Shown here one piece after another: positions 4,302 to 13,660 of a stretch of DNA of 64,000 nt (position 1 is its first letter; every line of letters begins with the position of its first letter). Source of the DNA: an uncultured Gammaproteobacteria bacterium (lineage in GTDB: Bacteria; Patescibacteriota; Patescibacteriia; UBA11705); NCBI GenBank assembly GCA_964413735.1, contig CAYPSS010000005.1:4398-68397 (forward strand), written 5' to 3'. Under the pieces are notes generated by a model that was not told the DNA's origin, searched no databases, and saw only the letters and a program-made list of their open reading frames with translations. The translations under genes were made by a program, and so were the position numbers.

Positions 4302-4352
4302 GGGATTATAGTTATTTATTTTATTATAACATATTAATTACCACAAAAAAAT

Positions 4353-4392
4353 AAAAAAAGACGAATTTTCATTCCTCTTTTTTTATGGCTCG
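4353..4392. repeat. 40-bp direct repeat, copy 1 (aaaaaaagacgaattttcattcctctttttttatggctcg)
   Basis: An exact second copy lies at 4585-4624. Each copy ends in '..atggctcg', which resembles the first bases of the tRNA-Gln 3'-end att core (ttggctcgggga). Confidence 0.8.
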
Positions 4393-4521: not shown

Positions 4522-4543
4522 TTTGGCTCGGGGACAGGGATTC
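4522..4543. repeat. attL-like 22-bp direct repeat of the tRNA-Gln 3' end (tttggctcggggacagggattc)
   Basis: Exact 22/22 match to 13417-13438, which is the 3'-terminal 20 nt of tRNA-Gln (minus strand) plus 2 flanking nt. The flanking bases on both sides differ between the two copies. Confidence 0.8.
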
Positions 4544-4584
4544 CCCGTAACAAGTACGGGGTAAACTTCTCATCCCTGGTATAT

Positions 4585-4624
4585 AAAAAAAGACGAATTT
4601 TCATTCCTCTTTTTTTATGGCTCG
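4585..4624. repeat. 40-bp direct repeat, copy 2
   Basis: Identical to 4353-4392. The two copies bracket the att-core copy at 4522-4543. Confidence 0.8.
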
Positions 4625-4740
4625 CTTGGAGGGACGCCTTTCGAACTTATGATTGGCGCAAGGCATTCCCTGTGCCAGAATTAGCTTTACAACAGATTAA
4701 CCACCTGTGCAGTTTAGCATAAGCTCTTAACTAACATCCT

Positions 4741-5292
4741 ATGCCAAAAGTAGCACAAAGCATTTTCGATGAATATGAAAAATACTACGTCGAGCAAGGA
4801 ATGACCTTGCAGGATGTTGCTTTGGAGTTTGGGCTAAACTACGGTTCTTTGCGCCAGTATTCAATGAAACAGAAATGGTCGGAGAAACAGAAAGAATACA
4901 GGGAAGCAACTCACAAAAAGCTAACACAAATCACTCAAATAAGAATAAACAAAGAAGCTGAGACACTGGATCACAAAAATCTGCGCCGTGCCGTGTATTG
5001 GAGGGCTTTCCAATCAAGCATAATGGATATGTTGGATGCACGTTCTGACGAGCTTAAACCGCAAGAAATAGCTGTTCTTGCAAGTGCCTTTGAGAAGGCC
5101 TGCCGTGGCGAACGTCTTGAAGATGGTCAGGCAGTCGAGATACACAAGGTAGAAACTCCAATTAAGCCCGATGCTGAATGCGCTATGATGGAAGAATATG
5201 AGATGCGCCTATTAAGACAACGGGGAGAAATTAAGAAACTTTCTGACGTGTTAGTAAAAAATAAAATTGATGGGTATTACAAAAATATCTAA
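4741..5292 (+). CDS. Phage terminase small-subunit-like / HTH DNA-binding protein
   Basis: 183 aa. The N-terminal ~60 aa (..QGMTLQDVALEFGLNYGSLRQYSMKQKWSEKQKEYRE) resemble the HTH + basic region of Terminase_2-type small subunits, and the rest is predicted helical/coiled. The similarity is weak. Confidence 0.35.
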   Translation: MPKVAQSIFDEYEKYYVEQGMTLQDVALEFGLNYGSLRQYSMKQKWSEKQKEYREATHKKLTQITQIRINKEAETLDHKNLRRAVYWRAFQSSIMDMLDARSDELKPQEIAVLASAFEKACRGERLEDGQAVEIHKVETPIKPDAECAMMEEYEMRLLRQRGEIKKLSDVLVKNKIDGYYKNI

Positions 5293-5312
5293 AAAACGGC
5301 TTAACGGCCGTT

Positions 5313-5810
5313 TTACTTTTTATAGGGATTTACAAAGGGACTGAAAGGTCTACCAAAATATAATGATAATTTATGACCGAGCCAGTGTCGCCCCAAATCG
5401 TTCAAACATTGTATTCTTTTGTCTTTATCAAGCACGCTTCTCGGCAATGATACTATTCTAGTAAAATCAACATAACTTGCTGGGAAAACACCTTCTTCTG
5501 GCAAGAAAAACCAATATCCATATTTTTGATCTGCCAATTGTGCAAGATCCACCTTTATTTGAGTTTGTTCAAGTTCTTCTACTGTGAGGACAGGGGCAAA
5601 AATTAAAAAATTGCGATTTTTGGGATTGTTAATATCGCAACTCTGGTTAAGAAGCATCATAGTCCGGCTCTGAACGTTGAATATGGACTTGGTTTCGGTT
5701 GCTCCGATTGGGTCAGGTGTAATTATAAAAGGAAGATCTTTTACTATATCACCCTGCAACCATTCATTTGTTGGAAGGTTGCTTGCATACATATAATTAC
5801 TACGTAGCAA
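5313..5810 (-). CDS. Hypothetical protein, last gene of the R-M/protease operon
   Basis: 165 aa with no recognisable motif. It overlaps the upstream 76-aa gene by 11 nt, so it is translationally coupled. Confidence 0.45.
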   Translation of the reverse strand: MLRSNYMYASNLPTNEWLQGDIVKDLPFIITPDPIGATETKSIFNVQSRTMMLLNQSCDINNPKNRNFLIFAPVLTVEELEQTQIKVDLAQLADQKYGYWFFLPEEGVFPASYVDFTRIVSLPRSVLDKDKRIQCLNDLGRHWLGHKLSLYFGRPFSPFVNPYKK

Positions 5811-6030
5811 GACCTAACTTTTTATAATAAGTATCCCAATCCTTAGGCGTTAAATCCTCCGGTTCTTTCTCGATTATTTCAGTCGCATAAACTTCACTGA
5901 TATCAGTAAAATGGACATTTGAGTATTGTTCTGTGGCAGTGAACTCTATGCCAGTTTGTTTAGCTTGAAAAACTTTTTTTTGAGTTTTTTCGTCTACTGG
6001 TTGAGCTTTGCAACTTGTTGAATATAACAT
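5800..6030 (-). CDS. Hypothetical small acidic protein (76 aa)
   Basis: Its stop lies 2 nt after the start of the downstream gene, and its start lies 1 nt after the SDH-protease gene stop. It is operonic. Confidence 0.4.
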   Translation of the reverse strand: MLYSTSCKAQPVDEKTQKKVFQAKQTGIEFTATEQYSNVHFTDISEVYATEIIEKEPEDLTPKDWDTYYKKLGLAT

Positions 6031-6031
6031 A

Positions 6032-6997
6032 TTATTCCCACTTATTATAGAAATTATGTATATTGAAATTAGGTAAAGGTGAATTACCGGGTAATTTCAT
6101 TACTTTATATTTCGAAACAAATTGGTCGGACAATTGTTCGCTCTGGATAATAGCTCTCGTTAAAGAGAAATCCTTTTCAACTTTGTTGCCAAGGAAATCA
6201 GCGGGGTTAAACTCATCATCGAGTTGTAAGATTTTTTTATAATGCATCATTAAATCGTTAATCAGCTTATCGTCTTTTGCATATTCGATTATGTCTCCAA
6301 AACCAATTTCATTTTTGGCTTCTTTTCGGTTGATTAAGTGTTCGTGAGAATATAATTTCTCTGTCAAATGATCGGTAATTTCCTTTAATTGTTTTTCTGT
6401 ATGATGATCTTGGTGTAATTTTAGCATTTGCAAAGACAATCTTCGTATCAGATGATGTGTTCTATTTATGGATCCGAGTATCTTTGGAGGTATGTGCTGG
6501 CTTAATTGATTTAGCACTTCTGTAAGAGAGTTTTGTTCAGCCAAGCCAATCTTTGACTTTGCAAACTCAATATAACCCAAAATATCTTCAATAGGTATTT
6601 GATCCTGTTTGTTTTCACCCATATTATATACACCTATTGGATCTATCGGCGAAAGCTGACTGTATGGCGTCATAATAATCCGGTCTGCCCCGAGGCATAT
6701 AAGGGTAGCGGCACTTAACGCCAAATGAGGAACAACAATTTCGAGTTCGTCGCAGTATTCCCTTATAAGATTAACTAATGGCCAAGGTGTATCTAAACGC
6801 CCTCCCTTACTGTAAAGAAATAGCGTAATCTTTTTTTGTTTTTTGATTTTTTGTAAGTGCTTATAAAAGATAGGCACTATATCCAATGCGATTTGAGTGT
6901 GAAAGTTCGGTTGCTTGTCTCCTGTGATATAAACAATAACCTTGCTTCCTCTCTCTTTTTCTAATTTTTTAATTAGATTTTCTATAATTTTTGACAT
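6032..6997 (-). CDS. SDH/S49-family ClpP-fold serine peptidase (SppA / phage-prohead-protease-like)
   Basis: 321 aa. The N-terminal ~140 aa carry the ClpP/S49 signature block 'YSKGGRLDTPWPLVNLIREYCDELEIVVPHLALSAATLICLGADRIIMTPYSQLSPIDP' (G-G..., a serine in an S-A-A-T-L context, then a '(A)D-x-I-x-M.P.S..PIDP' tail). This is as in Pfam SDH_sah / Peptidase_S49. A helical C-terminal extension of ~170 aa follows. Confidence 0.55.
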   Translation of the reverse strand: MSKIIENLIKKLEKERGSKVIVYITGDKQPNFHTQIALDIVPIFYKHLQKIKKQKKITLFLYSKGGRLDTPWPLVNLIREYCDELEIVVPHLALSAATLICLGADRIIMTPYSQLSPIDPIGVYNMGENKQDQIPIEDILGYIEFAKSKIGLAEQNSLTEVLNQLSQHIPPKILGSINRTHHLIRRLSLQMLKLHQDHHTEKQLKEITDHLTEKLYSHEHLINRKEAKNEIGFGDIIEYAKDDKLINDLMMHYKKILQLDDEFNPADFLGNKVEKDFSLTRAIIQSEQLSDQFVSKYKVMKLPGNSPLPNFNIHNFYNKWE

Positions 6998-7049
6998 ATT
7001 AGATTATTATATCCCTATATAATTATTATATTATAATGATAAAAAGACA

Positions 7050-8189
7050 TCAATCGCCAGCTTCGTCGTTTTCAAACTCCTCAAAGGAGCCGATTTTAGT
7101 GAAATCTATATCGTATTTTTTCTCTCCGACTTTGTAAATCACAACGCTGTCGACGCCTATTTCTTCCAGTTTTTCATAAGTGAGAAGCTCTCCTTCTTTT
7201 AAGTCGAAGATTTCCCTCAACAGCCACTTGCCAAGATCTGCGTTATGCTTGCTCATAAGCGCTTTGGAACCGTCTTGGCACACTTTTGCCTCCATCTTTT
7301 CTCCATTTGGCAAAAGCAATTCAAAATGAGTGTCTCTCGGAGGAAAGAAATCGGGGAAAGATCTGTGTAGCCACGCAGGGATAGGAATATAAACTTCGTT
7401 CGGATCTCTTGGGCGTCCGGATGCATTCCACTGATTAAGCCCGCTCTTTTCCGGAACATTCTTTTCACCGCCACGCATAGAATAAAGTGGAAGAAAAATA
7501 TGCGCCTGTTTCTTTATCGGTGCAAACTCTAATTTTTTAGCAACAGTAGCAAACATTCTTTCTAATTCAGAGAAAGGATCTTCCAGTATAGCTACTGACA
7601 AATCGAGAGCGACTTCTGGGGTTATAAATCTTTTATACAGGGTGCTTTTAGCAACATTAAAAGCATATTCATTGATGCCGTCGGTAAATGCTATTGTATT
7701 TCCGTTTGAAAGTTTTATGCGTGATATTTTATCAATCGCTATTCTGTCCATCGGAGTTTCATATACAAGTATGTTTTTTGGCTTTCTCGTGACGCAGTGA
7801 TAAATGATGTCGTTCAACCCAAACATTCTTTTGGTAGTATCTATTCTTTTATTGCGCATCTCTGCGATTTTTACGATCTTTTTTTCAGGATCAAGATGGC
7901 GGAATAAAGAATGCTCGCTGTTGAACTCGGCCACTTTCTGCATTGTGGCGCCGTTTTTTTCAAGAAATGTTTTTACGCCGATGCCGAGTTTGTCTTTTGA
8001 TGCATCTGCCGAACAGTCCGTGCGTGAAAGGTTCTCTGCATCAAACGCTTTGCAGAATAGATTTTCAGCAACCCTATAAGCAATATAAGGTTCATTGCTT
8101 TCTGAAAAAAGGCGTGAGAGCGAACCTATTGTTTCCAGCATCTTTGCGTAGTAGGTTTTGCTCGCTGTTTTTTGTGTTTCTATAAACAT
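7050..8189 (-). CDS. Putative Type II restriction endonuclease (partner of the adjacent C5-methyltransferase)
   Basis: 379 aa with no conserved-family motif that I can name. Its start is 2 nt downstream of the methyltransferase stop on the same strand, the classic M-R operon layout. Confidence 0.45.
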   Translation of the reverse strand: MFIETQKTASKTYYAKMLETIGSLSRLFSESNEPYIAYRVAENLFCKAFDAENLSRTDCSADASKDKLGIGVKTFLEKNGATMQKVAEFNSEHSLFRHLDPEKKIVKIAEMRNKRIDTTKRMFGLNDIIYHCVTRKPKNILVYETPMDRIAIDKISRIKLSNGNTIAFTDGINEYAFNVAKSTLYKRFITPEVALDLSVAILEDPFSELERMFATVAKKLEFAPIKKQAHIFLPLYSMRGGEKNVPEKSGLNQWNASGRPRDPNEVYIPIPAWLHRSFPDFFPPRDTHFELLLPNGEKMEAKVCQDGSKALMSKHNADLGKWLLREIFDLKEGELLTYEKLEEIGVDSVVIYKVGEKKYDIDFTKIGSFEEFENDEAGD

Positions 8190-8190
8190 A

Positions 8191-9144
8191 TTATGCTTGT
8201 ATAGCTTTCTTCATATTCACCGCAATGCGGTAAATGACCGGCACTGAAACCGAATTGCCGAATTGTTTATATAGCGCCGAGTCAGTAATGTTTTTAGGCA
8301 GTTTTATATTGGCAAACCCTTGCAATTTTGCGCATTCTTTTGGGGTTAATTTGCGGATGCCTTTTGCGTCCTTTATGATCGGAACGTTATGACCTCCCAT
8401 CCCCATATTCGCAGTAAGGGTCGGGCAAACTCCTTTTTTGTTTTCTCTAACATAAACCCTGCGCCACTGATAGACAGTGTTTTGGGATTTTATCTGTTCT
8501 TTCAGTTTATCGTATAACGGTTTGCCTTCATAGTAGTATTTTTCCGGGACGTCTTTTTCAAGAATATCTTTTATGCTTTTAGTAAGGGCGATTTTTTTTG
8601 GAAAGGAAAAAACATCATAGGATTTTTTCGACTTAAATCCAACAATATAAACACGCTCCCTGTTTTGAGGGACGTTGCCGTATTCCATTGTATTTAGTAT
8701 TTCAGTTTTGATGTGATAGCCCAGCTTTTCAAGCTCTGCTTTAATAACTTTGAAGGTGTTGCCTTTATCGTGAGAGTAAAGATTTTTTACATTTTCAAGC
8801 AAAAGTGCAGGAGGATTTTTTTCCTTCAAAATCCTGATAATATCCCAAAATAAGTTCCCACGGTTAGTATCTGAAAATCCTTTTCTATAACCTGCAATAG
8901 AAAATGGCTGACAAGGAAACCCTCCAAGAAGGACGCCGAACTTTTTAGGCAAATCGCTTGTCTTTACTTTTGTAATATCTGCAACGTGCAGTTTTGGTTC
9001 AGGAAAATTAAGATCGTATGTTATCTTGCAATTCGGTTCGAAATCATTTGCGTATAGCGTAGTGAAGCCGGCCTTCTCAAATCCTGCTCGAATACCGCCT
9101 ATTCCGGCGAAAAGATCAATGGTTGTTAAATCACTTTTTTGCAT
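8191..9144 (-). CDS. DNA (cytosine-5)-methyltransferase
   Basis: Motif I 'DLFAGIGGIRAGF', motif IV 'GGFPCQPFSIAG', motif VI 'ENVKNL' and motif X 'QFGNSVSVPVI' are all present. Confidence 0.9.
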   Translation of the reverse strand: MQKSDLTTIDLFAGIGGIRAGFEKAGFTTLYANDFEPNCKITYDLNFPEPKLHVADITKVKTSDLPKKFGVLLGGFPCQPFSIAGYRKGFSDTNRGNLFWDIIRILKEKNPPALLLENVKNLYSHDKGNTFKVIKAELEKLGYHIKTEILNTMEYGNVPQNRERVYIVGFKSKKSYDVFSFPKKIALTKSIKDILEKDVPEKYYYEGKPLYDKLKEQIKSQNTVYQWRRVYVRENKKGVCPTLTANMGMGGHNVPIIKDAKGIRKLTPKECAKLQGFANIKLPKNITDSALYKQFGNSVSVPVIYRIAVNMKKAIQA

Positions 9145-9447
9145 AATAAAAATTGGGTAAGTTTCGTGGTTATATTATACCTTGTTTAGGCCTGCATCGC
9201 AAGGCAAAATCTCATTGCAAAAAAGGCCTTGGTTTGTTATAATAATAGCGCTTACCCACAATCAATATAAATTATAACACGGGAAACGGGGTTCTGCCTC
9301 TCTTTGTCTGTTTGCGGCCAGAGATGGGGCAACAAACCTCCACAAACAGACACTCCCGTGTTTGCAACAGTGGGTAAGCAGGTTCTGCTGCCCCTTTTTT
9401 GTTTGTCTAAAAAGTCGGCGCAGTTTAATTATTAACTTATATAATTT

Positions 9448-10026
9448 ATGGCCGGCCTTTTCGCAATAATACTGCTTATAGCGTGTATTTTGCTCATCCT
9501 TGGGCTTATACAGCCCAAACTTGCCTTATACTGGGGCAAACACAAAAATCGTAAGCAAGTAGGAATAATTTACGGTTCACTCATCGCTGTATCCTTCATA
9601 GGCATCGGCATATTTGCACCTCCCGTTGAAAAAAAAGAATTGCCGAAAGAAGAAGAAAAACAACAAGTAGTTGATCAGCAAGTTCAAGTGTCCGTTGAAG
9701 ATAAACAGGAAGAACCTGAACAGATAAATCCAGAAGTAGAAAAGCTCGATGTGTGGGAGAAAATAATAATATCATTTGACGGGGGTTATTCCAAAAAAGA
9801 AATAAAAGAAAAAATGGATTTGGCAATGACCCTTTACGGGGTAGATCTTACTGATGAAAATTACAGCCGAACCGCAAGTTCGTTGATTTCTATGCGCCGG
9901 GAATATGGCTTCGAAGAAATGGAGATACTTAACTATGCAATATCTCTTTACACTCCAAAAGTTAAAATGACGTTGCCTGACGCAATCGGCATAGCAACTG
10001 CGGCTCTTGTGCAAGGAATAAAATAA
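9448..10026 (+). CDS. Hypothetical membrane-anchored protein
   Basis: 192 aa with two N-terminal TM helices, then a charged E/K/Q-rich linker and a C-terminal globular region. Confidence 0.45.
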   Translation: MAGLFAIILLIACILLILGLIQPKLALYWGKHKNRKQVGIIYGSLIAVSFIGIGIFAPPVEKKELPKEEEKQQVVDQQVQVSVEDKQEEPEQINPEVEKLDVWEKIIISFDGGYSKKEIKEKMDLAMTLYGVDLTDENYSRTASSLISMRREYGFEEMEILNYAISLYTPKVKMTLPDAIGIATAALVQGIK

Positions 10027-10101
10027 CAAAAACGCCGGCGAAAAGCCGGTTGTTTTTATACCCGATGAAAGGTATAATTATAGGCAAGAAGTGATGAAAC
10101 T

Positions 10102-10818
10102 ATGAAAGAAACAAGATCCTTTGCGCAGACACAGGAAAGATGGAAGCGCATTATCGAACACGACGTGTTCAAACACAATTTAGAGATTGTTAGGCAAGAT
10201 AAAGGCAAAATATCTTGGGCTGTTGCAGATACCCGAAAGAAACTAAATCTTTCTCCATATTGGGAGATGTTTTTTCTTCCTTTAAGTTTCGAATTAGGAT
10301 ACCCTATACCAAAAATCCGTCCGGCAGGTGCTTTGTATTTTAAGCCATTACTTGATCCAAAAACAGGGAAAATTATATACCCTGCGTTTATCTTTCCTGA
10401 AACCACAAAAAGAGATGTGTTGAGTTTTTATAAACGTTTTTGCAAAGTGAAGCGAGAAATAGGAAAAGAAGAAATACATCATCAAGGCAACTTGCCTTTA
10501 ATAAAAGCAGGAAAAGATATTATTACTCACAACTATTATTTTCAGGTTATACCGACCTCAAAGACAACACGGAAATCTATGTTAGAGGCATATTCAAATA
10601 TCTCAAAGTATTATGAGGCGTGCGGTCAAAAAGTCGTAAAAAGAAAATCGAGCAGACACGAAGAAGAATACCTTGCAAAGATGTTGTCCGAAGAAAAATA
10701 TACCTATTCTTATATAGCAAAAATTATTAACCAAAAAAGATCCAAGGATAACAGAATAGGCGTAGAAAATGTTTCATCTCTCATAAGGGGTGCAAAAAGA
10801 AAGCAAAAGAAACTCTAA
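10102..10818 (+). CDS. Hypothetical protein with a C-terminal HTH-like basic region (possible replication/regulatory protein of the element)
   Basis: 238 aa. The C-terminus '..YSYIAKIINQKRSKDNRIGVENVSSLIRGAKRKQKKL' resembles an HTH/DNA-binding tail. There is no firm family assignment. Confidence 0.4.
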   Translation: MKETRSFAQTQERWKRIIEHDVFKHNLEIVRQDKGKISWAVADTRKKLNLSPYWEMFFLPLSFELGYPIPKIRPAGALYFKPLLDPKTGKIIYPAFIFPETTKRDVLSFYKRFCKVKREIGKEEIHHQGNLPLIKAGKDIITHNYYFQVIPTSKTTRKSMLEAYSNISKYYEACGQKVVKRKSSRHEEEYLAKMLSEEKYTYSYIAKIINQKRSKDNRIGVENVSSLIRGAKRKQKKL

Positions 10819-10841
10819 AATGAACCCGCCAGAGGACTAAT

Positions 10842-11150
10842 TTGAACAATCAAAAAAATGATATGCTCATCACAGATAACGTGATGAGCTTTTTTATGAA
10901 AACAAAAATTGATGAAATTGAGTTTATTCCAGTAAAGCCCAAAAACGGCCTAATAGGTTTCGTTTCTTTTGTGCTTGATGAAAAGCTGTATTGCAGTTCT
11001 ATCGGCGTGCATACGAGGCCACAAGGCGGTATACGGCTTGTCTGGCCTCTGACAAGAACCGGAATGAAGGCAGTTTACCCGATTTCAAAGGAGCTATATT
11101 TTGAGACAGAAATTGCCGTAGCAGATAAAGTTCAAAGTTTTTTACAATAG
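10842..11150 (+). CDS. SpoVG-like protein
   Basis: 102 aa. The pattern 'IDEIEFIPVKPKNGLIGFVSFVLDEKLYCSSIGVHTRPQGGIRLVWPLTR...KAVYPISKE' parallels the SpoVG consensus (V.V.......GL.A.AS...D..F.V..I.V....GLFVAMPS.R...G...D.AHPI). Phage-borne SpoVG homologues are known. Confidence 0.4.
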   Translation: MNNQKNDMLITDNVMSFFMKTKIDEIEFIPVKPKNGLIGFVSFVLDEKLYCSSIGVHTRPQGGIRLVWPLTRTGMKAVYPISKELYFETEIAVADKVQSFLQ

Positions 11151-11405
11151 ACAGCCAAGACCGGCTTTTTAGTGGAGATCCGGGATAACAACTTAACCCT
11201 ACCGACAGTGCTTTACGCACGGGAGAGATAACTCGCTATGAAGGGCATAGCGGGGACAGATTGGCGGGCAGATCAATGTGGGAGCTACGCAGGCGTGCGT
11301 CTCCCGACCTAATCTGTTCGGCAGTTTTCTAACTTTAAGATTGTCTGCCTTACATAAGCTAATAATAGCTAAACAGGAAGTGTTTAGGGATCAAAACGCA
11401 TAAGT

Positions 11406-11618
11406 ATGACTATTGGTATTACAAAAAGTGAAAAAAATGTGCTGGGCGAGGAAAAGCCAAGAAACCACTATGATAGGCAATATCCGGCAGTAAGTTTTAG
11501 GATTGATCCAAAAACCAAGGAGATATTGCAATCAATAAAATCCGATCTTGGTAAAAGTTGGAACCAAACTTTCCTGCAACTTGCTCGTCTGTATAGCAAA
11601 AATCAAAAAGCTAAATAA
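11406..11618 (+). CDS. Small ribbon-helix-helix-like DNA-binding protein (candidate repressor or recombination directionality factor)
   Basis: 70 aa. 'AVSFRIDPKTKEILQSIKSDLGKSWNQTFLQLARLY' fits the beta-strand + two-helix CopG/Arc pattern. It lies just upstream of the integrase. Confidence 0.35.
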   Translation: MTIGITKSEKNVLGEEKPRNHYDRQYPAVSFRIDPKTKEILQSIKSDLGKSWNQTFLQLARLYSKNQKAK

Positions 11619-11633
11619 TTTTAATAAACGAAA

Positions 11634-11801
11634 ATGATCAGCCAAGCTCTAATACAAGAATTGAAGCAGATCCTCAAAGAAGAATACGGGGCTGATTTGA
11701 CTATGGAGCAAGTTTCAGAAATAGCGAACGGACAAGTCGCTTATTATCGCACGCTCGCTGAAATATACATTCGAGACAAACAAAAAATTGACAGTTCATA
11801 A
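11634..11801 (+). CDS. Small hypothetical protein (55 aa) absent from the ORF track (below its length cutoff)
   Basis: The uninterrupted reading ATG..TAA gives 'MISQALIQELKQILKEEYGADLTMEQVSEIANGQVAYYRTLAEIYIRDKQKIDSS'. It sits between the RHH gene and the integrase, with a TTGACA..TATAAT-like promoter for int immediately after it. Confidence 0.3.
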   Translation: MISQALIQELKQILKEEYGADLTMEQVSEIANGQVAYYRTLAEIYIRDKQKIDSS

Positions 11802-11858
11802 TCAAAATCTCTCCTTTAATTTAAGCAACTAATTTGATATAATTAACATAAGAAGTGT

Positions 11859-13481
11859 ATGAAACTACAAACACAACACAACCAAAAGCACTCTGTCATT
11901 TTGGCCAGAGTGTCGTCAAAAGAACAAGAAGAAACCGGATATTCTTTGCCAGCGCAGGAGAAATTGCTTCAAGATTATGCAGATAGAAAGCAGATGAACG
12001 TAAAAAAGGTTTTTTCGATAGCAGAGACAGCAAGCGGTTCAAAACAGCGTGAACAATTTTACGCTATGCTTGAATATGTCAAAAAACATAAAATCAACTG
12101 CATCCTTGTTGAGAAAGTAGACCGTCTGACAAGAAATATGCGTGATGCTCTCGTAGTCAATGAATGGATACAAGAAAATCCGAGCCACCAAGTCCATTTT
12201 GTGAAAAACAATCTTGTAGTAGACCAAAATACAAGATCCGACGATACTTTCAAATGGGACATCGAAGTTATTTTGGCAAAAAAGTATACTGCAAATCTTT
12301 CGGAAGAAGTAAAAAAAGGCCAAGAGGAAAAAATACAACAAGGCGGTTATCCTTCTCGTCCTCCTCTTGGATATAAGACAATCGGAGAAAAAGGCAGAAA
12401 GATGCACGTTATAAATCACGATATTGCGCCTTTAATCAGAAAGACCTTTGAATTGTATTCATCGGGTAATTATTCAGTAAAAGAATTAGTTAAAGTAATG
12501 AAGCGAGAGGGATTGCGAAACGAAAGCGGAAGCGAAGTTAAAAAAACTACAATGCACCGCCTTCTGACCAATCCATTTTACTACGGACAATTTAACTGGA
12601 ATGACAAGCTATGGGACGGCAAACACGAACCTATAATCACAAAGGAATTATTTGATCAGGTGAAAAGTAAACTCGAACGCAAAACTTCCAGTCCTACATA
12701 CAGAAAACATAATCCTGTTTTCAAGGCGGTTTTTCATTGCGGAGAATGTGGAAGCGTAATTAGCTGGGAAACACACAAAGGTCACTGGTATGGCTGTTGT
12801 AAGCATTACAAGCCCTGTTCTCAAAAAGGATCATTGCGGGAAGAAGATGTTGAAAAACAGCTTATGCCTCATTTTGATACGATTGCCCCGAAGAACGAAC
12901 GAGTTGTTAAGTGGCTCGAAAAAGCATTGAAGTCCGATCAAGCTGACGTCGTTGAAACCCACAACGCAAAAAAGAAAGAAATGAATGCCCAGATTGAAAG
13001 ATTGGACAGGCGTCTTGATGCAATGTATATGGACAAAATTGATCAGAAGATTGATTTGGATTATTACGAAAAGAAAAAACAGGAGTTTGAGGAGGAACGC
13101 AGTGCAATAAAAAGCGAACTCGCCAGATTGGATGACAGCAAAGCAGAATACTACGCAGTAGGAATTGCTATACACGAACTCGCACTTAAAGCGTGGAAGA
13201 TCTACAACAGCGAGAAAGCAACGATTGAAGAAAAGAGATTGCTTTTGAGCTATGTATTTTCGAACTCAACCATTAAAGAGCGAAAGTTAGCCATAAACTA
13301 CACTTTTGCCTTTGATTTTCTTCAAAATTGGATGCCGGCTGTAAATAAAACTTTCGAACCGGCAAAACTTGGCTTAACTAAAACAAAAAACACCTCTGAA
13401 AAAGAGATGTGTTCTGTTTGGCTCGGGGACAGGGATTCGAACCCCGATAGCCAGGACCAAAACCTGGAGTCCTACCATTAG
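11859..13481 (+). CDS. Large serine recombinase / serine integrase
   Basis: 540 aa. It has an N-terminal resolvase/invertase catalytic domain ('VILARVSSKEQEETGYSLPAQ', catalytic Ser), a recombinase domain, a zinc-ribbon Cys cluster (CGECGSV...CCKHYKPC) and a C-terminal coiled coil. The last ~20 codons are read from the complement of tRNA-Gln. Confidence 0.9.
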   Translation: MKLQTQHNQKHSVILARVSSKEQEETGYSLPAQEKLLQDYADRKQMNVKKVFSIAETASGSKQREQFYAMLEYVKKHKINCILVEKVDRLTRNMRDALVVNEWIQENPSHQVHFVKNNLVVDQNTRSDDTFKWDIEVILAKKYTANLSEEVKKGQEEKIQQGGYPSRPPLGYKTIGEKGRKMHVINHDIAPLIRKTFELYSSGNYSVKELVKVMKREGLRNESGSEVKKTTMHRLLTNPFYYGQFNWNDKLWDGKHEPIITKELFDQVKSKLERKTSSPTYRKHNPVFKAVFHCGECGSVISWETHKGHWYGCCKHYKPCSQKGSLREEDVEKQLMPHFDTIAPKNERVVKWLEKALKSDQADVVETHNAKKKEMNAQIERLDRRLDAMYMDKIDQKIDLDYYEKKKQEFEEERSAIKSELARLDDSKAEYYAVGIAIHELALKAWKIYNSEKATIEEKRLLLSYVFSNSTIKERKLAINYTFAFDFLQNWMPAVNKTFEPAKLGLTKTKNTSEKEMCSVWLGDRDSNPDSQDQNLESYH

Positions 13482-13492
13482 ACGATCCCCGA
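13419..13492 (-). tRNA. tRNA-Gln (anticodon UUG)
   Basis: The reverse complement folds as a cloverleaf. The acceptor stem is TCGGGGA/TCCCCGA. The D-arm is GTCT-AATGGTA-GGAC. The anticodon stem is CCAGG/CCTGG with loop TTTTGGT, giving anticodon TTG. The T-arm is CGGGG-TTCGAAT-CCCTG. The discriminator is G and CCA is encoded. Confidence 0.85.
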
Positions 13493-13535: not shown

Positions 13536-13660
13536 TGTCCACCGTAGCTTTAGCGAAGGTGGAGCTAAGTTCACCGTAGCTTTAGCGAAGGTGAAACGAT
13601 CCCTGCCTACTCGTCTCGCCACACGGACGAAGCGGACCAGCAGGCAGACCTGTCCGACAA
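13536..13660. repeat. GC-rich structured region flanking tRNA-Gln. It contains a tandem 22-nt repeat (caccgtagctttagcgaaggtg, two copies) and a hairpin element homologous to 54750-54797.
   Basis: Copies of the 22-mer lie at 13540-13561 and 13571-13592. Segment 13591-13645 (ccctgcctactcgtctcgccacacggacgaagcggaccagcaggcagac) is about 85% identical to the reverse complement of 54752-54797. Long-range pairing GGATCGT/ACGATCC encloses the whole block. Confidence 0.6.

Follow-up and report, generated by a model that had tools for sequence, protein, structure and literature searches.

A small mobile island carries, side by side but as separate units, a restriction-modification pair and an apparent toxin–antitoxin system with a dedicated protease

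[quoted passage not shown] Among defence systems, FS_HP_SDH_sah reportedly combines a hypothetical protein with an SDH protease; its description, from PICIs, is attributed to Fillol-Salom et al. (2022, Cell). To our knowledge it has a phenotype but no known mechanism. The idea that a protease acts on a linked TA system or MazF-fold protein has precedents. The orthocaspase MaOC1 of Microcystis cleaves the antitoxin of a ParDE-like TA system, and co-expression halts growth (PMC7935541). In CRISPR-Lon, the dedicated protease CalpL cuts the genetically linked MazF-fold complex CalpT, which launches defence (10.1101/2021.12.06.471393). TAC, with its antitoxin extension, is a third: its operons are tripartite, an extra segment ties the antitoxin to the third component, toxins are interchangeable and an antiphage role is reported (10.1101/2024.02.24.581848).

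We analysed a window of 64,000 nt (contig CAYPSS010000005.1) in which five minus-strand genes encode a C5 cytosine DNA methyltransferase (MTase), a Type II restriction endonuclease (REase), an SDH-type ClpP-fold serine protease and two small proteins. The restriction-modification (R-M) pair and the other three genes (the trio) adjoin on a small mobile island but are separate units, and the trio looks like a TA system with a dedicated protease. The island covers about 8.9 kb at a tRNA-Gln gene (tRNA-Gln(ttg), 13419..13492, minus strand; ARAGORN, Rfam tRNA 57.9 bits). Its boundaries are the two copies of a 20-nt direct repeat: on the right, the 3' end of this tRNA (13419-13438), and on the left TGGCTCGGGGACAGGGATTC (4524..4543, repeat family D1), a duplicate of that end. 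The island integrase is a large serine recombinase (11859..13481, plus strand) matching the Pfam families Resolvase, Recombinase and Zn_ribbon_recom and the integrase family phrog_95 (1e-80). The cargo also includes a 183-aa HTH protein (4741..5292, plus strand), convergent with the trio, which has no match in Pfam and, in PHROG, weakly resembles families of terminase small subunits and of DNA-binding proteins (E about 3e-4).

The five minus-strand open reading frames (ORFs) had the coordinates and lengths of the original prediction: 8191-9144 (317 aa), 7050-8189 (379 aa), 6032-6997 (321 aa), 5800-6030 (76 aa) and 5313-5810 (165 aa). Its labels for the first three were confirmed by Pfam and PADLOC profile searches. 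The MTase is M.HhaI-like, with matches to Pfam DNA_methylase (PF00145, 1.3e-87), TIGR00675 (8.7e-97), PADLOC MTase_II (1.4e-118) and M.HhaI in the PDB (9.5e-56). The REase is matched over its full length by PADLOC REase_II (PDLC03479, 3.2e-109) and has a C-terminal NgoFVII-type B3-like DNA-binding domain (Pfam RE_NgoFVII_C, 1.5e-15); a search of PDB sequences returned no relative. The two genes, of cognate types, adjoin as in Type II R-M systems, with a single base (8190) between MTase stop and REase start where 2 nt had been reported; the spacings of 52 nt between REase and protease and of 1 nt between protease and 76-aa ORF were correct. From these profile matches, they are predicted to be an ordinary R-M pair, next to the trio and not part of it.

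The five genes had been proposed to form one transcription unit and a composite defence operon, with the protease module backing up or regulating the R-M system. Their common strand, their tight spacing and the lack of a predicted terminator-like site between REase and protease agree with this, as does the recurrent co-localisation with R-M, since DNA methylases often adjoin the trio elsewhere. However, neither this MTase nor this REase had a homologue in the 22 genome loci, and the trio is self-contained in MAGs of Patescibacteria, Clostridia, Ignavibacteria and Proteobacteria (many loci are in Patescibacteria). Moreover, a promoter-like site (TTGATG-17-TATAAT, 7053..7025, minus strand, 10 of 12 matches in a consensus scan) lies in and beside the AT-rich 52-nt spacer. 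The absence of these R-M genes from those loci and the presence of the promoter-like site argue for independence of the trio; a single transcription unit is thus not established, and the five-gene operon is very improbable. The site at 7025..7053 is possibly the trio's own promoter, a reading weakened by the number of promoter-like sites across the region, which equals the expectation from shuffled sequences. The sole strong terminator-like hairpin of the region, the GC-rich AAAACGGCTTAACGGCCGTTTT (5293..5314), is located past the last gene, where it separates the toxin-like gene from the convergent 183-aa gene, and is likely a bidirectional terminator ending the trio transcript.

The protease (6032..6997, minus strand) is a member of Pfam PF01972 (49.4 bits for a gathering score of 31.3, with only residues 6-120 aligned) but falls outside the NCBIfam equivalog NF047768 (56.6 bits for a cut-off of 250). 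S95 of the motif LSAAT is its predicted nucleophile, accompanied by an oxyanion GG (65-66). All 83 homologues examined carry the nucleophile motif, and S95, GG65-66, D119, D138 and H218 are invariant, suggesting that the protease is probably catalytically active. The helical extension of ~170 aa noticed previously is helical at about residues 155-270 and is followed by a beta-sheet (274-320). This C-terminal domain and the partner genes distinguish the protein from NfeD/1510-N and SppA, which are self-standing ClpP-fold serine peptidases, and no membrane segments were noted in it. We detected no ATPase domain in the protease, which is therefore presumably ATP-independent. Neither a SAVED/CARF sensor domain nor a link of the trio to CRISPR was detected.

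The original prediction had also considered that the gene might be the relic of a decayed prophage, encoding a prohead protease or scaffold. The protease does score against the NCBIfam head-maturation model NF045542, below threshold (36.9 bits for a cut-off of 120), and against PHROG head-protease families (1e-6 to 1e-2), and the weakly terminase-small-subunit-like gene adjoins the trio. Yet its best PHROG match is a family of unknown function (phrog_11747, 3e-41), and among viral structures it best matches giant-virus SDH proteinases (TMq 0.54-0.60), with phage Clp and prohead proteases scoring far lower. There was no match in IMG/VR viral contigs and one partial match in 50,697 phage genomes, and the gene, which is intact, shows tight linkage with genes of TA type. 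Capsid, portal and terminase families are absent from the 25 most frequent Pfam families of the neighbourhood (123 neighbours, 22 genome loci); in the window the protease gene lies among R-M and TA-type genes, and elsewhere its neighbours include DNA methylases, ResIII/SNF2 helicases, resolvases and STAND NTPases. We therefore reject the prohead-protease reading, which is extremely improbable given these neighbourhoods and the sub-threshold head-maturation scores. Together with the two small genes, the protease makes up a recurrent module among defence-type and mobile genes; neither consistent head-gene neighbours nor a confinement of the trio to this locus, each of which would have spoken against such a module, was observed.

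The composition of the module was studied in 65 non-redundant protease loci, each with at least 800 nt downstream, in which ORFs were called mechanically. A small same-strand ORF abuts the protease in 59 loci (start -70 to +110 nt from the protease stop) and a third ORF abuts in 49. The third gene is a homologue of the window's 159-aa protein in 38 of the 65 loci, PIN in four, RelE-like in three, PemK in three and Doc in two, and is unclassified or absent in 15. The PemK/MazF matches (L051, L062 and L095) range from 1e-27 to 1e-14; the same slot holds PIN at L007 and L049, Fic/Doc at L067 and L069, and a protein with weak ParE/HigB-like matches at L041.

In the window, the third gene encodes a protein that had been deemed unannotatable (5313..5792, minus strand). 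It has 159 aa from the ATG at 5792, or 165 aa from the TTG at 5810. We prefer the ATG because all homologues open with "MY..." and the identical entry P0121 of the protein collection (NCBI source, 159 aa) begins there; the reported overlap of 11 nt with the 76-aa ORF applies to the TTG only and becomes a gap of 7 nt with the ATG. The protein had no match in Pfam (including PemK_toxin PF02452 and CcdB), NCBIfam or PADLOC, and a profile search of PDB sequences returned nothing. Structure comparison revealed a MazF/CcdB/Kid fold, and the motifs QGD, SQxCD, FYLP, GRH and FGRP are conserved. This fold shifts the reading from a protease effector to a TA pair with a dedicated protease. The family counts 2,995 representative clusters, making it a large, so far unannotated MazF/CcdB-fold toxin-like family. 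Since many polar residues are conserved, RNase activity is plausible for what would be a divergent toxin. The conserved residues could not be mapped onto the catalytic residues of MazF and no PemK or CcdB model matches, so the protein might be, by analogy with CalpT, a non-toxic MazF-fold binder. Such a role is reportedly what the published paper established for CalpT.

The small acidic 76-aa protein (5800..6030, minus strand; identical to entry P0309 of the protein collection, NCBI source) is a putative antitoxin and protease substrate, as suggested by synteny and motifs. Its gene lies upstream of the toxin gene in the same orientation, with the stop 7 nt before the toxin ATG, and this arrangement is kept in 49 of the 65 loci. 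The small proteins had no significant match to Pfam antitoxin models; beside MazF, RelE or PIN toxins their C-termini resemble, by eye, ordinary antitoxin tails. These tails sort exactly by toxin cluster (NYKxVLTPAL, FYKKxFKTSLI and YYKKxGL), and YYKKLGLAT in the window is particular to its toxin subfamily. At the other end, the middle proteins share a segment of the Y-[ST]-G / SQTG type, including where the third gene is PIN, and the N-terminus of the 76-aa protein resembles this family-recurrent motif.

We consider it reasonably probable that 6997-5313 is a protease–antitoxin–toxin cassette, independent of the R-M pair, in which the protease cleaves the antitoxin and frees a divergent MazF/CcdB-fold toxin. 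What the data show is a conserved order of genes, the folds of the proteins, the swapping of toxins and the co-variation of small-protein tails with toxins; toxicity, neutralisation, the roles of cutter and substrate, the trigger and an antiphage function are what we infer. The C-terminal tail of the antitoxin would bind and neutralise the toxin, and its N-terminal segment would take the place of the usual DNA-binding domain, serving the protease as a handle or cleavage site. Cleavage by the 321-aa protease could be constitutive, giving a labile antitoxin without need for host Lon/Clp, or could occur upon a trigger, e.g., phage infection, so that the freed toxin arrests the cell. The cassette might thus act in abortive infection, as an addiction module stabilising the 8.9-kb tRNA-Gln island, or both.

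The original claim that no described system resembles this arrangement was too strong, since DefenseFinder lists FS_HP_SDH_sah, with its SDH_sah gene (PADLOC 2.0.0 has no model for it). Compared by description, both are carried on a small integrative element and join an SDH-type protease (PF01972) to a small partner protein that is uncharacterised, and E. coli relatives of the window's protease occupy defence or moron positions in prophages. That system has two genes, whereas here there are three, including a MazF-fold toxin, and the host is not an enterobacterium. The core could nevertheless be the protease and the small protein, as in FS_HP_SDH_sah, with the protease as effector or sensor (e.g., cleaving a phage or host protein), the small protein as inhibitor or pro-peptide, and toxins as optional add-ons. 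Besides the listing of an SDH_sah-containing system in DefenseFinder, this would fit the small ORF being more conserved (59 of 65 loci) than any single toxin. Seven loci have only the protease and the small ORF (L081, L082, L085, L088, L093, L104 and L106), and solo proteases occur too, such as a 331-aa relative that E. coli prophages carry in a moron position, flanked by Q and the holin gene; these forms suggest that the protease may have a toxin-independent role. But a two-gene core leaves unexplained both the small-protein tail that tracks the toxin subfamily and the near-constant presence of a classical TA toxin as third gene, and we regard it as unlikely. It is largely compatible with the protease–antitoxin–toxin reading, the two not being exclusive.

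The likeness to TAC, drawn by analogy only, lies in the tripartite operon, the extra antitoxin segment and the swappable toxin families. The locus is not a TAC system: its third component is a ClpP-fold serine protease instead of a SecB-like chaperone, and the antitoxin extension is N-terminal, whereas the ChAD of TAC is C-terminal. The protease could still behave like SecB, i.e., bind and protect (or mature) the antitoxin via the N-terminal extension until a trigger titrates it away and host proteases remove the antitoxin. This parallels the TAC architecture of third gene, antitoxin extension and interchangeable toxins (10.1101/2024.02.24.581848), and the large non-catalytic C-terminal domain could provide a binding platform. 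However, the strict conservation of the catalytic Ser and other polar residues in all homologues favours catalysis over mere binding, which makes a SecB-like role quite improbable.

The protease–antitoxin–toxin cassette also differs from the other precedents. The gene of MaOC1 directly precedes a TA pair, as here, but encodes a caspase-fold cysteine protease reported from a single locus (PMC7935541), whereas the present proteases form a family with swapping toxins. CalpL, a protease of the Lon-SAVED type, is switched on by the cA4 of type III CRISPR, and its target carries the MazF-like domain and the inhibitor in one polypeptide. Relative to type II systems such as MazEF, CcdAB and Kid-Kis, the toxin lies outside the PemK and CcdB sequence models and has its own motifs (QGD, SQxCD, GRH, FGRP), no DNA-binding domain is recognisable in the antitoxin, and a dedicated protease gene precedes the pair. 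In the literature searched, we found no description of a TA system carrying its own ClpP-fold protease. None of the PADLOC 2.0.0 models recognises the three proteins of the trio, and such loci therefore go uncounted by it.

More broadly, and with more doubt than conviction, we propose that SDH-type ClpP-fold proteases may be the portable trigger of a large unrecognised class of tripartite TA systems. They would cut N-terminally tagged antitoxins, possibly on sensing phage proteins, and free interchangeable toxins (MazF, PIN, Doc, RelE and the MazF/CcdB-fold family of ~3,000 clusters). If true, this would supply a mechanism for FS_HP_SDH_sah and explain TA function in hosts with a reduced or incompatible Lon/Clp repertoire. 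A TA family with its own small protease beside a tagged antitoxin, and no ATPase partner detected, would offer a self-contained model of activation, in which three small proteins would suffice to study the cleavage site, the trigger and the release of the toxin.

All five minus-strand ORFs of the original prediction were found at the positions it had given. Two of them form a Type II restriction-modification (R-M) pair, as had been proposed: the 317-aa C5 methyltransferase (8191-9144) is M.HhaI-like (Pfam 1e-87; M.HhaI in the PDB, 1e-55), and the 379-aa endonuclease (7050-8189) matches the PADLOC model REase_II (3e-109) and has an NgoFVII-type B3-like C-terminal domain. The call of an SDH-type protease for the 321-aa protein (6032-6997) is also borne out, since it passes the threshold of Pfam PF01972 (49.4 bits vs 31.3). 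It falls below the NCBIfam SDH equivalog cut-off, and we class it from its sequence as an SDH proteinase at the Pfam level. The 76-aa (5800-6030) and 165-aa (5313-5810) proteins had been described as unannotatable, and neither has a match in Pfam, NCBIfam or PADLOC. Yet the larger one has a MazF/CcdB fold and matches phrog_4575; this family and phrog_11747, matched by the protease, are PHROG families of unknown function. The predicted spacings were generally correct, except for an 11-nt overlap between the last two ORFs. The 165-aa ORF opens at a TTG, its homologues all start with 'MY...', and a protein-collection entry of the same sequence (P0121, NCBI source) has 159 aa and starts at the ATG at 5792. 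With this start, a 7-nt gap follows the stop of the 76-aa ORF and replaces the overlap.

The last three genes (hereafter the trio) recur outside the window. Homologues of the protease, of about 330 aa and aligned over their full length at roughly 50% identity, number at least 666, and many of them are from Patescibacteria MAGs. We gathered 22 genome and 80 metagenome loci encoding such homologues, called their ORFs mechanically, and counted synteny in 65 non-redundant loci, each with 800 nt or more of sequence beyond the 3' end of the protease gene. In 59 of the 65, an ORF of 50-180 aa on the same strand starts between -70 and +110 nt from the protease stop; a third ORF abuts the small one in 49, and in 38 this third ORF encodes a homologue of the 159-aa protein. 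That the core consists of the protease and the small protein, with toxins as optional additions, is unlikely. Around two thirds of the trio-bearing genome loci (L001-L022) are from Patescibacteria/CPR MAGs (Saccharibacteria, Moranbacteria, Parcubacteria, Minisyncoccia, Peribacteria). The highest identities to the proteins of the window in a collection of 5.8 billion proteins were 60% for the protease and 74% for the toxin.

The original prediction took the five genes for a single unit, a composite of the R-M pair and the trio. This is poorly supported, because the trio recurs without homologues of the window's methyltransferase and endonuclease, none of which was found in the 22 genome loci. 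The window itself has a promoter-like site in the AT-rich 52-nt spacer upstream of the protease gene, and the sole strong terminator-like hairpin (5293-5314) lies just beyond the last gene of the trio. Hence, we reject a conserved five-gene operon: the R-M pair and the trio are two adjacent systems, which may be co-transcribed by read-through.

The 159-aa protein goes unrecognised by sequence models and is toxin-like by its MazF/CcdB fold. Its family includes 2,995 representative clusters (E ≤ 1e-3); the family profile had no significant match among PDB sequences, and a tblastn search with the toxin against 50,697 phage genomes gave no match. Polar motifs particular to the family are conserved (QGD, SQxCD, FYLP, E..D, GRH, FGRP) and point to an enzyme more than to a protein that only binds. 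Where the protease loci lack a homologue of this protein, classical type II toxins occupy the third position: PemK/MazF in loci L051, L062 and L095 (Pfam 1e-27 to 1e-14), PIN in L007 and L049 (4e-10 and 6e-6), Fic/Doc in L067 and L069 (about 1e-12) and, with a weak match, a ParE/HigB-like protein in L041 (about 5e-3). Besides the 38 homologues of the 159-aa protein, the 65 loci have in this position PIN (four), RelE-like (three), PemK (three), Doc (two), and other or no proteins (15). Two further pairs are candidate new toxin/antitoxin pairs, judged by position: a retropepsin-like aspartyl protease with a DUF5678 partner (L072, 1246-2173; Pfam 3e-5), and a DUF7689 protein with an uncharacterised 154-aa protein (L063, 5361-6295; Pfam 1e-31).

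The small proteins in second position appear from their sequences to behave as modular antitoxins. They have in common a short N-terminal segment of the Y-[ST]-G / SQTG type, found also in both PIN-linked loci aligned. Their C-termini resemble by eye the antitoxin tails that fit each toxin type, a likeness that Pfam does not confirm: a scan of ten of these proteins gave no more than weak UPF0150 and DUF5678 matches. Among the loci with homologues of the 159-aa protein, the C-tails sort exactly by toxin sub-cluster, with NYKxVLTPAL in cluster 1, FYKKxFKTSLI in cluster 2, and YYKKxGL in cluster 3, which includes the window. A RiPP-like precursor paired with a protease is a disfavoured reading of the small ORF, because a classical toxin is repeatedly found in third place.

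In the AF2 model of the protease (pLDDT 91.3), the ClpP/crotonase core is followed by a helical region (~155-270), and a beta-sheet (274-320) forms the C-terminus. The helical extension noted originally is thus real, but its end is a sheet. S95 (LSAAT) aligns with the nucleophile motif AASAGT of 1510-N, and all 83 full-length homologues examined carry the serine motif, those that depart from a stricter pattern in the form xS[AS][AG]T. G65, G66, D119, D138 and H218 are invariant. That the protease acts in the manner of a chaperone and not by degradation is very unlikely.

The original prediction had alternatively considered that this gene could be a leftover prohead protease of a decayed phage. 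We reject this poorly supported reading: capsid, portal and terminase are absent from the 25 commonest Pfam families of the trio's immediate neighbours in the 22 genomes, and phage Clp and prohead proteases score structurally much lower than the best viral matches, the giant-virus 'serine dehydrogenase proteinases'. Among the commonest neighbour families are DNA methylases, ResIII/SNF2 helicases, resolvases and STAND NTPases. The island that carries the trio had no megablast match in the 50,697 phage genomes, where the protease had a single partial tblastn match (Gordonia phage), and a protease profile scan of IMG/VR gave no confirmed locus.

Other relatives of the protease occur in Escherichia coli. 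A solo 331-aa relative (34% identity over 90%) occurs in L023 (5956-6951, plasmid NZ_CP081794.1) and in 47 of the 5,426 complete genomes of this species. In a lambdoid prophage or phage-plasmid, its gene, on the strand opposite to theirs, separates the Q antiterminator gene from the holin gene, which is a classic place for a moron, with no small ORF or toxin gene downstream. In plasmid pSM107_MCR (L104, 2806-3879, NZ_CP130669.1), a 300-aa SDH-like protein and a 56-aa hypothetical protein are encoded directly downstream of a cI/LexA-family repressor, the place of rexAB in lambda. Here the protease and the small protein make up a two-gene form, situated in a prophage defence hotspot.

In the window, an exact 20-nt direct repeat (TGGCTCGGGGACAGGGATTC, 4524-4543 and 13419-13438) copies the 3' end of tRNA-Gln(ttg) and bounds an element of ~8.9 kb (about 4544-13418). 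This island contains the R-M pair, the trio, a large serine recombinase (11859-13481), whose ORF enters the tRNA-Gln gene on the opposite strand by 63 nt, and a plus-strand 183-aa HTH protein (4741-5292). A small integrative element thus carries the trio as cargo. The weak PHROG likeness of the HTH protein to small subunits of terminases (E about 3e-4) and the integrase hint at a phage-satellite-like element; no further gene for packaging or replication could be recognised in the island, where an Rfam scan found the tRNA alone. On either side of the left att copy is a perfect 42-nt direct repeat (4351-4392 and 4583-4624), each copy with a hairpin and then TGGCTCG, the bases with which the att core derived from the tRNA begins. 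Neither Rfam nor ARAGORN called a tRNA at these repeats, which may be left over from previous or tandem insertions into this tRNA site. Just outside the tRNA-Gln gene lie two tandem near-identical 25-nt repeats (GTCCACCGTAGCTTTAGCGAAGGTG, 13537-13561 and 13569-13593).

[quoted passage not shown] DefenseFinder lists a system with an SDH_sah gene, FS_HP_SDH_sah, reportedly a two-gene system from PICIs made of a hypothetical protein and an SDH protease. PADLOC, which has no such model, matched neither the trio nor the E. coli, Klebsiella and Chlorohelix relatives. The Tai system, which comes from the same laboratory, is unrelated; its paper makes no mention of a protease. Our search of the literature, whose coverage was incomplete, turned up no report of TA modules linked to an SDH protease, so an earlier description may exist.

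A protease–antitoxin–toxin cassette is the most economical reading of the trio. The C-tail of the 76-aa protein would neutralise the MazF/CcdB-fold toxin, and the SDH protease would cleave the 76-aa protein via its N-terminal segment. Cleavage might be constitutive, so that the antitoxin is labile without any help from host proteases, or might follow a trigger, e.g., infection. Once freed, the toxin would arrest the cell, with the effect that infection is aborted, the island is stabilised, or both. Comparable arrangements include the MaOC1 orthocaspase, which cleaves the antitoxin of a TA pair 3' of its own gene (PMC7935541), CRISPR-Lon, which cleaves a MazF-fold partner (10.1101/2021.12.06.471393), and TAC systems, where an antitoxin extension is tied to a third component (10.1101/2024.02.24.581848). 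The trio would thus be a tripartite, protease-controlled TA system, directly testable and of considerable interest to specialists.
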